From: a virus
Lineage: Duplodnaviria; Heunggongvirae; Uroviricota; Caudoviricetes
IMG/VR virus record: IMGVR_UViG_3300044984_001938
Strand: one strand, 5' to 3'
DNA length: 64,000 nt
In this document: one piece after another, positions 3,189-29,020 of the stretch
Layout: every line of letters starts with the position of its first letter
Position numbering within the stretch: the first letter of the stretch is position 1
Made by a program: the position numbers and the translations under genes
The notes under the pieces: model-generated
Told to the model about the DNA's origin: nothing
Databases searched by the model: none
What the model saw: only the letters and a program-made list of their open reading frames with translations

Positions 3189-3740
3189 ATGCTATTAACA
3201 ATCAAAAATAAATTAACAATAACAGTCATGTTGTTTCTAACAATTGTGGTTATACCTTTACCTACGCAAGTTATAGCTGAAATGCCTATAATTACTGCTA
3301 ATCTAAAGAAAATTGATAAGCAGCAGGTTGCGTGTATGGCAAAGAATATTTTTTACGAAGCAGGATCAGAGTCTAAGCCTGGACAAGCTGCGGTTGCAAG
3401 AGTGGTGTTGAATCGGGTTAATCATGGGTTTGCTGAAACCCCATGTAAAGTAATCTATCAAAAAACAGTAGTCAATGAGAATGTTATATGCCAATTTAGT
3501 TGGGTATGCGAAGAAAAAGATGTGCTAAATAAAGCTAGTGCAAGATATAAACAAGCAGAAATGATTGCATATCAAACCATGATGGGTATGTACAAAGATG
3601 TTGTTCCAAAAACAACGGTGTTCTTTCACTCAATTAATGTTGATCCAGCTTGGCCATATAAACAAGTGGCAAGAATCGGAAATCACATTTTCTATAGTAA
3701 GCAAAAGGTAAAAAATGAACAGAAGCCCGACAAGAAATGA
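3189..3740 (+). CDS. SleB-like cell wall hydrolase (Hydrolase_2)
   Basis: N-terminal hydrophobic segment; CMAKNIFYEA, AVARVVLNRV, CQFSW and IGNHIFY motifs. Confidence 0.9.
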   Translation: MLLTIKNKLTITVMLFLTIVVIPLPTQVIAEMPIITANLKKIDKQQVACMAKNIFYEAGSESKPGQAAVARVVLNRVNHGFAETPCKVIYQKTVVNENVICQFSWVCEEKDVLNKASARYKQAEMIAYQTMMGMYKDVVPKTTVFFHSINVDPAWPYKQVARIGNHIFYSKQKVKNEQKPDKK

Positions 3741-20130: not shown

Positions 20131-20163
20131 TCATGTTCGTTTACGATAATTACCCCCAAACAT

Positions 20164-20240
20164 GCCCTGGTAGACAAATTGGCAAAGTCAACGGTCTAAG
20201 AAGCCGTAATCTGCGAGTTCAAGTCTCGCCCAGGGCACCA
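20164..20240 (+). tRNA. trnL: tRNA-Leu(AAG), short variable arm
   Basis: ACGGT-CTAAGAA-GCCGT; CCA. Confidence 0.8.
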
Positions 20241-20456: not shown

Positions 20457-20548
20457 GGAAGATGATGCAGCGGGGATGGTCCTGCGACCGGCTTTGAATA
20501 CCGGGTTCTCAGAAATGGGATGGGGTTCGACTCCTCCGTCTTCCGCCA
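20457..20548 (+). tRNA. trnS: tRNA-Ser(UGA)
   Basis: Long variable arm, G73, CCA. Confidence 0.85.
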
Positions 20549-20909
20549 AAGTTTTGTAAGCTACATGGGTTGACCACAACGCCACGCGCCAAGGTAAGGT
20601 AGCTGAAGTGTAAGTAGCAGGTTTGGTCATGCTTACACACTAAAAAGTTTTGTAGTCTAGCGGTTAGCTAGGGTAAAGGCGTTGCGGGCTTAAATGTCGT
20701 TAAACATCGTAGCGCAACTTAATGATAATGTGTGCAGCCTACTACAAATTCAGTTTTGAGATAGACGATGTAGTAGAGTCCCTTGTGCGCTAGTGCCCTA
20801 TTTCTTGAGCATGACACCCCAGTAGCAACATAAGGTCGTATAAACTCCTACAACCGAGACAAGCCAGTGAGTCCTTAAGAAAGATAGTTGGTCTCTCAAA
20901 AACTCATAT

Positions 20910-20985
20910 CCCGACTAAGCTAACCTAGTGGAAGCGCCTGTCTGAAGAACAGGAGGGCTTGGAGCGTAACCAAGAGTCGGGACCA
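20910..20985 (+). tRNA. trnF: tRNA-Phe(GAA)
   Basis: CCTGT-CTGAAGA-ACAGG; CCA. Confidence 0.88.
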
Positions 20986-21098: not shown

Positions 21099-21734
21099 AT
21101 GCATAAATATAACATGCATACTATATCTCTTTTTTATAAAATGGCATTAATGTCATTGGATGAGGCACTCTCATTGGAGCACGTTGCATTACAGCTTAGT
21201 GATAATTCTGTAGTGGTTGAGGTTGGGTGTTTTATGGGCGGCAGTGCAGCAATAATAGCACATACAAATAAATCAATATCGGTGCATTCTTTTGATTTAT
21301 TCGAGGACGATACCCATACTGCCTATAGAGGCCCGAACCAGTATAAGTTATTTTCGCAACTTTTACAAGAAAAGAAGCCGGTTAGATCATTAGATAATGT
21401 GCGTAAAATCTTATCTTACAGTAATATTCATTTATATAAAGGTAGAAGTCCGGTTGATTTTGTAAATTGGGATACACCTATTGATATGTATTTTGAAGAT
21501 AGTTTACACACTAATCCGTCATTATCCATGAATATTAAGTTTTGGGAACCAAAACTTAAGGAAGGGGGGTATTTATTAATGCATGATTGCAGACCATTTC
21601 TTCCTAAGGATCACTTTCATAGATTTATTGATGTAGAATACGAAAGTGAAAAATTATTAGCTAACGGATATAAAAAAATATCACATGTTGGTGCTCTTTT
21701 GGTTTTACAAAAATGCATTTCGACGGTAAAGTAA
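21099..21734 (+). CDS. class I SAM methyltransferase (Methyltransf_24-like)
   Basis: VVEVGCFMGGS; IDMYFEDSLH; GGYLLMHD. Confidence 0.85.
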   Translation: MHKYNMHTISLFYKMALMSLDEALSLEHVALQLSDNSVVVEVGCFMGGSAAIIAHTNKSISVHSFDLFEDDTHTAYRGPNQYKLFSQLLQEKKPVRSLDNVRKILSYSNIHLYKGRSPVDFVNWDTPIDMYFEDSLHTNPSLSMNIKFWEPKLKEGGYLLMHDCRPFLPKDHFHRFIDVEYESEKLLANGYKKISHVGALLVLQKCISTVK

Positions 21735-22306
21735 AATTTCTATTAGATTTAGAATCAACTCAAGAATTTATCTCTTTGAGACATTGTATATTAAATTTTG
21801 AATGGCAAAAACATAGTAATCTATTCAATATAGCTGATATTGCATTTAAGAATTCCGGGGTAATTCAATTTAATTATAATAAATTAATGAGGCACATTAG
21901 ACCACAACCTGTCTATGTGAAAGACATTAATACATTAATTGATGTTGCTATGCCGGTTGTAGAAAACATCAAATCTATATTTCCGAAACATAATGTATTA
22001 AAATCACATTTTGTAGCACTTAACCCCAGCGGAAGACAATACCCCCACATAGACAGTATATATTACCATAATTTTTGCACTAGACTAGTGATACCTATAA
22101 CAGGTAACGATAAGTGTGTATCTTTTATAGGAAATGAGGAATTTAATTTATCCATCGGGCAATTGTATGAGATTAATAATAAATTAATACATTATAGTGA
22201 AAATTTAGGTAACAGTATTAGAACATATATGTTTGTAGACATATATGATGAAGGAAAGGCCTATTCATTGAATGGGCATTACAAATATTCGGGATTAGTG
22301 TTGTAA
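21713..22306 (+). CDS. AspH-like hydroxylase
   Basis: PHIDSIYYH...RLVIPI...YEINNKLIH. Confidence 0.75.
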   Translation: MHFDGKVKFLLDLESTQEFISLRHCILNFEWQKHSNLFNIADIAFKNSGVIQFNYNKLMRHIRPQPVYVKDINTLIDVAMPVVENIKSIFPKHNVLKSHFVALNPSGRQYPHIDSIYYHNFCTRLVIPITGNDKCVSFIGNEEFNLSIGQLYEINNKLIHYSENLGNSIRTYMFVDIYDEGKAYSLNGHYKYSGLVL

Positions 22307-22375
22307 AAGTTTCATTGAACAATTGAAACATTAGAAGGGTTGAGTTCAAATCCAACCTATGGTACCAAATTATTT

Positions 22376-22436
22376 CTCGCTATAGTTCAACTGGATAGAA
22401 CAATTTTCTCCTAAGGAATAGATGATAGTTCAAGTC
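22376..22436 (+). pseudogene. 5' part of split tRNA-Arg(CCU)
   Basis: Acceptor 5' strand, D-arm, anticodon arm with CCT, and T-stem 5' strand. Confidence 0.8.
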
Positions 22437-22455
22437 AACATTTAATAAATAATGT

Positions 22456-23115
22456 ATGAGATATAATTTATTAATACCCGGTTGGATGTCTGTTGTTGAC
22501 TTAGAGATACTTAACCGGCTTGCTAGTTATGTTCCTGAAAACGGAAGCATTTTGGAAGTTGGTTGTTTTGTAGGCAGGTCCACATCTGCATTATTTTCAG
22601 GAAAACCTGCTAGTGCAACTTTAGAAGTGGTAGACACATTTGACGTTAGTAATCCATATGGATTACACATTTCTGATAATAATATTAAAGGTAGTCAATA
22701 TTACAAAAACAAAATTAAAGAAATAGCTAAAAATACAGGGAGTTGGGAAGAATCATTTCGGTTTTGTTTAACCCCAGAAGTTGCAGATCACATACAGATA
22801 TCAGTTGCATCAAGTTTGGAATATAATTTAACAAAACAATTTGATATGGTTTTTATAGATGCAAATCATGCGGTTAATCATGTATTACATGATATCAAGA
22901 AATTTGCATCTAAAAATACATTATTAGTGGGAGACGATTTTTCCAAAACTTATTTAGGAGTTGCTGAAGCATTAGCACTAGTTCATTTTGAAATACCTAG
23001 CACACTTATTGCTCCGTCAAATTCTAAAATTTGGATCATGGTTCCCGAGGCAGGGTACTGGAATAATTTGTTCCTAACAGTGCCCGGATTGCTAGTTATA
23101 CAAGTTACTGTCTAA
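22456..23115 (+). CDS. class I SAM methyltransferase (Methyltransf_24-like)
   Basis: ILEVGCFVGRST; FDMVFIDANH; VGDDF. Confidence 0.85.
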   Translation: MRYNLLIPGWMSVVDLEILNRLASYVPENGSILEVGCFVGRSTSALFSGKPASATLEVVDTFDVSNPYGLHISDNNIKGSQYYKNKIKEIAKNTGSWEESFRFCLTPEVADHIQISVASSLEYNLTKQFDMVFIDANHAVNHVLHDIKKFASKNTLLVGDDFSKTYLGVAEALALVHFEIPSTLIAPSNSKIWIMVPEAGYWNNLFLTVPGLLVIQVTV

Positions 23116-23188
23116 AAACACTGGACTTAACTGTACCCAAACATGATTTGATAACCGAATAGTACCGGGCTAAAAAGCCGGGTTCTGC

Positions 23189-23213
23189 GAGTTCAAATCT
23201 ATCTAGTGAGACC
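23189..23213 (+). pseudogene. 3' part of split tRNA-Arg(CCU)
   Basis: AGTTCAAAT-CTATC-TAGTGAG-ACCA complements the 5' part. Confidence 0.8.
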
Positions 23214-23276
23214 AACACCAATCTAGATTTTAGTTTGGTTGACACAAAATACTAATTGTAGTATAATAAACATTAT

Positions 23277-23384: not shown

Positions 23385-23945
23385 ATGGCTGTTTTAGCAT
23401 TGGACATTTCAGGGATCCCAAGACAATGGATCTCACACGATGAAGCAATTACATACCATGCCAAAGGTGCGGTAGCATGGAGCATGGGTGAAATTGTTGC
23501 TAAGTATCACGGTGGTGTTCAAAACTCCGGTGATCAAAGCTATCTTGAAACTGCTAGTATTATTGCTGTTAAAGGTCACGGATTCAATCCATACAAACAT
23601 GCTACTGTGGCATTGACTAACAAAACCTTGTTTGGACGGGACCGGCAAGTGTGTGCGTATTGTGGCAAACATCATGCCAACACTCATCACTTAAGCAGGG
23701 ACCATATTGTCCCTAAATTTTTAGGTGGCTACAATGTTTGGGAAAATGTAGTGACTGCATGTAAAGTTTGTAATAGTAAGAAAGGTCATAAGACATTGAA
23801 GGAATCTCGTATGGAACTATTATATGTTCCGTATATCCCTTCTCATCACGAAAACATGATTTTACAACATCGTAATATCTTAGTGGATCAAATGGATTAC
23901 TTGTTAGCAGGTGTTCCAAAACATTCTAGAATTTGGCAGACTTAG
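23385..23945 (+). CDS. HNH endonuclease (McrA/HNH_5-like)
   Basis: RDRQVCAYCG...SRDHIVP...NVVTACKVCNSKKG; start re-placed after RBS AAGGAG. Confidence 0.9.
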   Translation: MAVLALDISGIPRQWISHDEAITYHAKGAVAWSMGEIVAKYHGGVQNSGDQSYLETASIIAVKGHGFNPYKHATVALTNKTLFGRDRQVCAYCGKHHANTHHLSRDHIVPKFLGGYNVWENVVTACKVCNSKKGHKTLKESRMELLYVPYIPSHHENMILQHRNILVDQMDYLLAGVPKHSRIWQT

Positions 23946-24471: not shown

Positions 24472-24546
24472 CTGGCGTTCGTTCAACGGATAGGACATGA
24501 TTCTTCTAAAGTCATTATAGAGGTTCGATTCCTCTACGCCGGACCA
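24472..24546 (+). tRNA. trnR: tRNA-Arg(UCU)
   Basis: CTTCTAA loop; CCA; sigma70-like promoter upstream. Confidence 0.88.
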
Positions 24547-27843: not shown

Positions 27844-27866
27844 GCCCTGGTGGCGAAATTGGTAGA
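27844..27866 (+). pseudogene. 5' fragment of split tRNA-Leu
   Basis: GCCCTGG plus a Leu-type D-arm; pairs with CTAGGGC at 29010-16. Confidence 0.7.
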
Positions 27867-28979: not shown

Positions 28980-29020
28980 TCGCAAAGAGCGTGTCGGTTC
29001 GAGTCCGACCTAGGGCACCA
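28980..29020 (+). pseudogene. 3' fragment of split tRNA-Leu
   Basis: Variable arm, T-arm GTCGGTTCGAGTCCGAC, then CTAGGGC-ACCA. Confidence 0.7.

Follow-up and report, generated by a model that had tools for sequence, protein, structure and literature searches.

The tRNA-Arg(CCU) gene of this phage is divided at its T-loop by a 753-nt insertion that carries a methyltransferase gene. The reading we favor, at a probability of about 0.8, is that it is an insertion-inactivated pseudogene, which arose when ectopic recombination took place at motifs conserved among tRNAs, possibly begun by a homing endonuclease that cuts in the T-loop. The locus belongs to a dense tRNA array, with more than 31 genes and with small ORFs interspersed among them, on the + strand between about 16.9 and 29.8 kb of the window, by which we mean the whole 64,000-nt stretch of DNA that was analyzed. 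The elements of the divided locus, followed by the paralogue of its last part, are these.

22376-22436, + strand: 5′ piece of tRNA-Arg(CCU), with the acceptor 5′ strand, D arm, anticodon arm (CCT), variable loop, T-stem strand GATAG and a T-loop copy
22427-22436, + strand: left core copy AGTTCAAGTC, 10 nt, from repeat analysis; a single copy in relatives L062 and L152
22437-23189, + strand: inserted DNA, 753 nt (763 nt with one core copy), absent from syntenic relatives and from the X23 contig
22456-23115, + strand: class I SAM-dependent methyltransferase, 219 aa (Pfam Methyltransf_24)
23128-23144, + strand: copy of the spacer that precedes tRNA-Leu(AAG), ending CCCAAACAT, from local alignment to window 20146-20163
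23145-23199, + strand: pseudo-tRNA-Leu(AAG), from nucleotide 1 to the T-loop, from alignments to the Leu(AAG) genes of L062 and of the window
23190-23214, + strand: 3′ piece of tRNA-Arg(CCU), with the right core AGTTCAAATC, T-stem strand CTATC, acceptor strand TAGTGAG and ACCA
20164-20240, + strand: resident intact tRNA-Leu(AAG), paralogue of the fragment at the insert end

When the pieces are joined through either core copy, ARAGORN at default stringency calls a tRNA-Arg(cct) of 76 nt, counting the CCA that lies at 23212-23214 in the 3′ piece. The joined molecule has an acceptor stem of 7 bp (one of them G.U), a D stem of 4, an anticodon stem of 5 and a T stem of 5, GATAG with CTATC, and the chance that 12 of 12 pairings between the pieces would be Watson-Crick or G.U, given the local base composition, is about 9e-6. 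The core, AGTTCAARTC, is identical at 9 of 10 positions between 22427-22436 and 23190-23199, and the copies lie 763 nt apart, start to start. Neither piece carries a disabling mutation, and the 2 remain fully compatible. Only 2 changes are specific to the window, C30 to T and A39 to G, which turn Watson-Crick pairs into G.U with no mismatch and leave the anticodon stem of the joined tRNA with no G-C pair. The undamaged pieces fit a recent insertion and continued selection alike, in a clonal population that has no polymorphism to separate the two.

An intact tRNA-Arg(cct) is found in 2 relatives, at L152:476-551 and, on the minus strand, at L062:4707-4782, each identical to the joined pieces at 72 of 76 positions. 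L152 was reached through an HNH homologue and L062 through a DNA pattern, the second and more generic of those applied to the metagenomes, for which mostly bacterial tRNA-Arg genes were among the matches listed; an earlier pattern for the intact junction, with the exact anticodon stem, had 0 matches in the metagenomes because the relatives differ at 2 stem positions. The tRNA order is common to L152, L062 and the window: Leu-aag, Leu-caa, Phe-gaa, Arg-cct, Arg-(c/t)cg, HNH, Thr-tgt, Arg-tct, Tyr, Asp. Window 22344-22436, which takes in the 5′ piece and the spacer upstream of it, is 92.5% identical to L062rc 3438-3530, and window 23190-23222 aligns to L062rc 3521-3553; the core, at 3521-3530, is single there and double in the window. 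Both relatives are without the methyltransferase of the insert, as they are without a second methyltransferase and a hydroxylase-like gene.

The original prediction had proposed comparing relatives and searching for an empty site. The comparison gave the intact genes of L152 and L062. The search, in which assembled Logan contigs of 4 lake runs were aligned to the region, gave a single empty-site contig, from run X23, which joins 22426 to 23190 and skips 763 nt, with 7 ambiguous letters and a shorter side of 26 nt. This contig matches to the end of the tRNA and its flank then diverges, and for that reason we attribute it to a relative. An empty site was thus found, but never in this phage's own contigs. 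Of the wider collections, the GenBank phages included no close relatives and returned generic tRNA matches only, and IMG/VR returned no tRNA match and one distant methyltransferase match. Two metagenome contigs, L019 and L124, have unrelated tRNA-Arg(CCT)-like genes in which the tRNA likeness ends soon after the anticodon loop; they may be tRNA-Arg(CCU) genes that contain an intron.

The insert ends in a decayed copy of tRNA-Leu(AAG). Over 38 nt (23163-23200) that span the anticodon arm, the variable loop and the 5′ T-stem strand GCGAG, its identity is 92% to the Leu(aag) gene of L062 and about 80% to the one that the window has at 20164-20240. Upstream of this the homology continues into the 5′ third of the tRNA, which has diverged, and on into the pre-Leu spacer, in an alignment equalled by 6 of 1000 shuffles. 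The anticodon AAG has become AAA, the closing pair of the anticodon loop is G.G, about 7 nt have been lost from the D arm, and GCGAG makes 3 of 5 pairs with the Arg strand CTATC that follows it; ARAGORN finds no tRNA over 23120-23225, even at -ps70. The letters themselves show that the right junction is a T-loop crossover between the Leu(AAG) copy and tRNA-Arg(CCU), running from GCG-AGTTCAA (Leu) to AGTTCAAATC-TATC (Arg), and this crossover explains both the 10-nt direct repeat and the chimeric T arm that does not pair. The left junction, …AGTTCAAGTC/AACATTTAATAAATAATGT-ATG, adjoins the methyltransferase leader with a shared microhomology of at most 3-4 nt (GTC/TCAA). Here we infer an illegitimate or microhomology join, and it is because this end has no clear homology that the exact mechanism has to be inferred. 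A donor layout, with the methyltransferase directly upstream of tRNA-Leu(AAG), was absent from all loci examined.

Most of what the original prediction had read from the letters therefore stands. The 2 pieces do make up a complete tRNA-Arg(CCU), by the ARAGORN call and by the intact orthologues; the T-loop core is repeated, as 10-nt copies; the insert of about 750 bp does carry a SAM methyltransferase, by its Methyltransf_24 match; the second tRNA-like arm at the insert end is the Leu(AAG) copy; and neither side restores the tRNA, neither junction yielding one that can fold. The 5′ piece had been placed exactly at 22376-22436, but the 3′ piece runs from 23190 to 23214, not from 23189 to 23213.

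The methyltransferase gene, the only ORF of at least 60 aa on the coding strand of the insert, leaves just 19 nt and about 74 nt of it non-coding. Its match to Pfam Methyltransf_24 has an E value of 3.7e-7 and exceeds the gathering score; a PDB sequence search and NCBIfam gave no match. Homologues (57-73% identity) occur in 5 other phage contexts, all of them in tRNA arrays behind an intact tRNA or a hairpin, and in none of the 5 is a tRNA split. The association with a split tRNA is therefore an isolated case. Homologues in relatives lie within 10-20 nt of a tRNA 3′ end, and expression of the homologues from tRNA-array transcripts is suggested. An AT-rich leader, AATAAATA, lies upstream of the methyltransferase and resembles the T4 late-promoter motif found upstream of homologues; those in other phages likewise have an AT-rich leader, in which the motif TATAAATA is present. 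In L010 (2941-3000) and in L153-L155, a conserved GC-rich hairpin (…GACCCCCGCTTTGTCAGG…CCTGACAC) stands upstream of the methyltransferase and is followed by TATAAATA, which is the T4 late-promoter consensus and lies just 5-8 nt ahead of the homologues' start codon. So short a distance would imply that the late transcripts of these homologues are leaderless or very short-leadered.

The most probable course of events begins with an ancestral array of tRNA-Phe(GAA), an 8-nt spacer and tRNA-Arg(CCU), as relatives keep it. A 753-nt segment, copied from elsewhere in a phage tRNA array, then entered the Arg(CCU) T-loop; it was made up of the methyltransferase gene, a short stretch of spacer and a tRNA-Leu(AAG) gene without its last quarter. 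The right end was joined by a crossover within the near-universal T-loop sequence, and the left end would have been joined illegitimately, at no more than 3-4 nt of microhomology to the methyltransferase leader. The event was probably break repair or template switching in the course of replication, which in a T4-like phage is driven by recombination, and the break, more speculatively, may have been cut by a T-loop homing endonuclease of the T4 SegB type. The methyltransferase would be the selected cargo and tRNA-Arg(CCU) dispensable, and no dedicated splicing or excision machinery would be involved. The tRNA is taken as dispensable because AGG is rare in the phage, making up 2.7 of every 1000 codons in 36 ORFs of the window, and because a tRNA-Arg(UCU) is present, encoded in the window as tRNA-Arg(tct) at 24472. 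Gene capture by T-loop recombination had been one of the suggestions of the original prediction, and it is supported by the intact gene without the methyltransferase in relatives and by the T-loop crossover at the right junction.

Damage of a similar kind is found next door, and an endonuclease gene lies on the other side.

21099-22306, + strand: upstream cassette, with a distant Methyltransf_24 ORF (21099-21734) and an Asp/Arg-hydroxylase-like ORF (21713-22306); missing in L062 and L152
22322-22367, + strand: pseudo-tRNA-Phe, from the anticodon-loop region to the CCA, its T arm mismatched; a remnant of tRNA-Phe(GAA)
23385-23945, + strand: HNH endonuclease, 186 aa, 170 nt downstream of the split tRNA and in the same place in insert-free relatives

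The pseudo-tRNA-Phe sits at the end of the upstream cassette, and in relatives tRNA-Phe(GAA) lies 8 nt upstream of tRNA-Arg(CCU). This neighboring tRNA has been broken beyond repair by a similar cassette, which shows that the phage can do with dead tRNA genes. At 20910-20985 (+ strand) lies a tRNA-Phe(GAA) with a complete cloverleaf and CCA; its T-loop is odd (AGCGTAA, as against TTCRANY), and it is found by aragorn -ps70 and missed by default ARAGORN and by Rfam. In relatives this place is taken by an ordinary tRNA-Phe that does not look related to it, so the upstream cassette may have carried in a Phe gene of its own and destroyed the one already there. Chimeras formed at the T-loop recur, in the pseudo-Phe at 22322-22367 and in fragments on the relatives L013 and L014. 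The latter (L013:2674-2732 and L014:2425-2482) resemble three quarters of a tRNA-Arg(ACG), have T arms that do not pair and lie behind a methyltransferase cassette; compared with L014, L013 appears to have undergone a deletion from T-loop to T-loop, its fragment fused to the tail of the next tRNA-Thr. No 5′ partners of these chimeric fragments are present on their short contigs.

Three further observations in the array are recorded for their own sake. A second broken tRNA, also on the + strand, has a Leu-like 5′ piece at 27844-27866 (GCCCTGG and the beginning of the D arm) and a 3′ piece at 28992-29020 (T arm, acceptor, CCA); the pieces are 1.1 kb apart and flank a tRNA-Leu(tag) and an antisense ORF of 317 aa that has weak matches to endonuclease-family PHROGs. 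A sigma-70 consensus promoter, 12/12 (TTGACA, 17 nt, TATAAT), lies at 23239-23267 on the + strand, immediately downstream of the 3′ piece of tRNA-Arg and 10 nt upstream of tRNA-Arg(CCG). Finally, between a tRNA-Sec-like match and the tRNA-Phe at 20910-20985 is a GC-richer non-coding stretch of about 360 nt (20545-20908, + strand); parts of it are conserved in L062 (88% over 139 nt) and in L152, and it matches no Rfam family.

The HNH endonuclease belongs to a family of 1092 protein clusters at E<=1e-40, 75-89% identical. Its homologues occur in tRNA arrays and, on other contigs of lake phages, immediately behind a pstS-like gene, a distribution which suggests that it is a very mobile free-standing endonuclease. 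Two homologues, P0043 and P0044, were tried as a route to relatives and set aside, as they lie in unrelated contexts downstream of the pstS-like gene. That this HNH enzyme made the initiating break is speculative and less likely than not. A SegB-like homing-endonuclease cassette was also rejected as the identity of the insert, for the HNH gene lies outside it and is present in the empty-site relatives L062 and L152.

The other suggestion of the original prediction, an excisable or spliced switch, finds no support: there is no ribozyme, no junction like a bulge-helix-bulge, no recombinase and no inverted repeats, and all contigs of the phage carry the insert. As a switch at the DNA level, the insert would be a small integrative cassette, its recombinase encoded elsewhere and AGTTCAARTC its attachment site. 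Such a cassette would account for the Campbell-like layout, with a 10-nt direct core repeat at each end, and the single G/A difference between the cores is compatible with a crossover inside AGTTCAA; moreover, tRNA T-loops are known to serve as integration cores. We nevertheless consider the idea very improbable. There is no recombinase within or beside the insert, and no second instance of the insert ends came up in searches of IMG/VR or metagenome contigs. The part that resembles a tRNA comes from the front of a Leu gene and does not supply Arg with a new 3′ end, so no tRNA is restored. The insert is present in every contig of this phage, and the empty site of X23 has a diverged flank. A tRNA-targeting integrative element was accordingly rejected, the core repeat being present at both ends and the integrase and the restored tRNA both lacking. 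An IS element or MITE was rejected as well, there being no inverted repeats that pair the insert ends and no transposase ORF. The 10-nt repeats could permit rare precise loss of the insert by slippage, but a loss of that kind would revert the locus and would not amount to a programmed switch.

At the RNA level, the pieces would pair, nucleases would excise the methyltransferase mRNA and a phage RNA ligase would reseal tRNA-Arg(CCU), making the insert a protein-dependent T-loop intron. The 2 halves are perfectly compatible, as this would require, and in MFE and centroid folds of the entire 851-nt stretch both acceptor strands are predicted still to pair. Yet we hold the idea very improbable, since no ribozyme, bulge-helix-bulge or other defined structure marks the junctions. 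Rfam Intron_gpI had no match at E<=1 over 15 kb and none at E<=10 over 981 nt; the sole match in a permissive Rfam search was a sub-threshold partial tRNA on the 5′ piece; and the free and constrained folds predicted for a mini-precursor had no bulge-helix-bulge at positions 51 and 166. Moreover, the CAGCA handle of the array's other small RNAs is missing from 22376-23214, the end of the insert is a decaying pseudo-tRNA rather than a conserved element, the methyltransferase homologues elsewhere are never inside a tRNA, and the adjacent tRNA-Phe was irreparably broken by a similar cassette. To our knowledge, there is no splicing endonuclease in bacteria or bacterial phages. If rejoining at the RNA level were true, it would mean a new kind of tRNA intron in bacterial viruses, at a non-canonical site, and the evidence makes that unlikely.

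Still less credible is a function for the pieces unjoined, in which a tRNA-shaped frame, its acceptor and T stems closed, would be a processing or stabilizing scaffold for the methyltransferase mRNA and not a decoder. The long-range acceptor pairing is predicted, and in relatives the homologous gene stands 10-20 nt from a tRNA 3′ end. However, those relatives express it without such a frame, and translation of the ORF would break the pairing across 760 nt.

The split arrangement is real and fixed in a clonal population. Eight contigs (L002-L009), from JGI and Logan and from different samples, are the same as the window base for base across both junctions; the exact methyltransferase protein is present on at least 23 contigs from many lake metagenomes, of which the 8 readable ones were compared, and at least half of the sampled words of the stretch are present in 22 sequencing runs. 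An assembly chimera is next to impossible, because 8 contigs assembled independently by 2 pipelines from different samples are identical at both junctions.

The pseudogene reading makes this locus a clean, datable case of tRNA-array remodeling in T4-like jumbo phages. The near-universal T-loop emerges as a recombination hotspot that captures protein-coding cargo at the cost of tRNA genes, here Arg-CCU and the adjacent Phe-GAA. The case also carries a warning for annotation: split tRNAs in phage arrays can be recombination scars even though their halves look perfect, and the tell-tale of a scar is a chimeric pseudo-tRNA at one end of the insert.

Comparison with known systems points the same way. 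The elements moved by tRNA-targeting integrases share with this insert a position in the T-loop and a short direct core repeat on either side, but here there is no integrase and no restored tRNA, and the tRNA-like end is the 5′ three quarters of a different tRNA. A tRNA-Arg(CCU) intron is known in Agrobacterium, and the group I introns of bacterial and phage tRNA genes occupy the anticodon loop and contain a ribozyme core of at least some 200 nt. They resemble the present case as ORF-bearing inserts in tRNA genes, but a group I intron was rejected here, as the insertion is in the T-loop, not the anticodon loop, and no ribozyme core was detected. The disrupted tRNA genes of archaea, with non-canonical bulge-helix-bulge introns or split tRNAs (PMC3239211), are likewise interrupted outside the canonical intron site; an intron or split tRNA of that type was rejected, since the junctions here have no bulge-helix-bulge.

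The closest parallels are a phage endonuclease and a plastid rearrangement. [quoted passage not shown] The array described here is of the T4 type, and SegB makes breaks at T-psi-C whose repair transfers neighboring genes. Unlike that system, the present insert has no endonuclease, and the nearby HNH gene is also found in insert-free relatives; a link is speculative. For rice plastids, chimeric tRNA pseudogenes that arose by illegitimate recombination between distinct tRNA genes have been described at inversion endpoints (Hiratsuka 1989, as related in PMC12371153). As far as that account goes, the differences are that in the present case a protein gene was carried in, that both halves of the target stand intact at its sides, and that the setting is a phage array. 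The likeness, within the same account, is that the front of Leu-AAG has been fused to the tail of Arg-CCU in a conserved motif, leaving a scar that cannot fold. The features of a chimeric pseudogene are all found here: origin from 2 tRNAs with the junction in the T-loop, intact parental genes (Arg(cct) in L152 and L062, Leu(aag) in the window and L062), and a product that does not fold. Thus, the divided tRNA-Arg(CCU) is a new and well-resolved example of a type of event that is already known.
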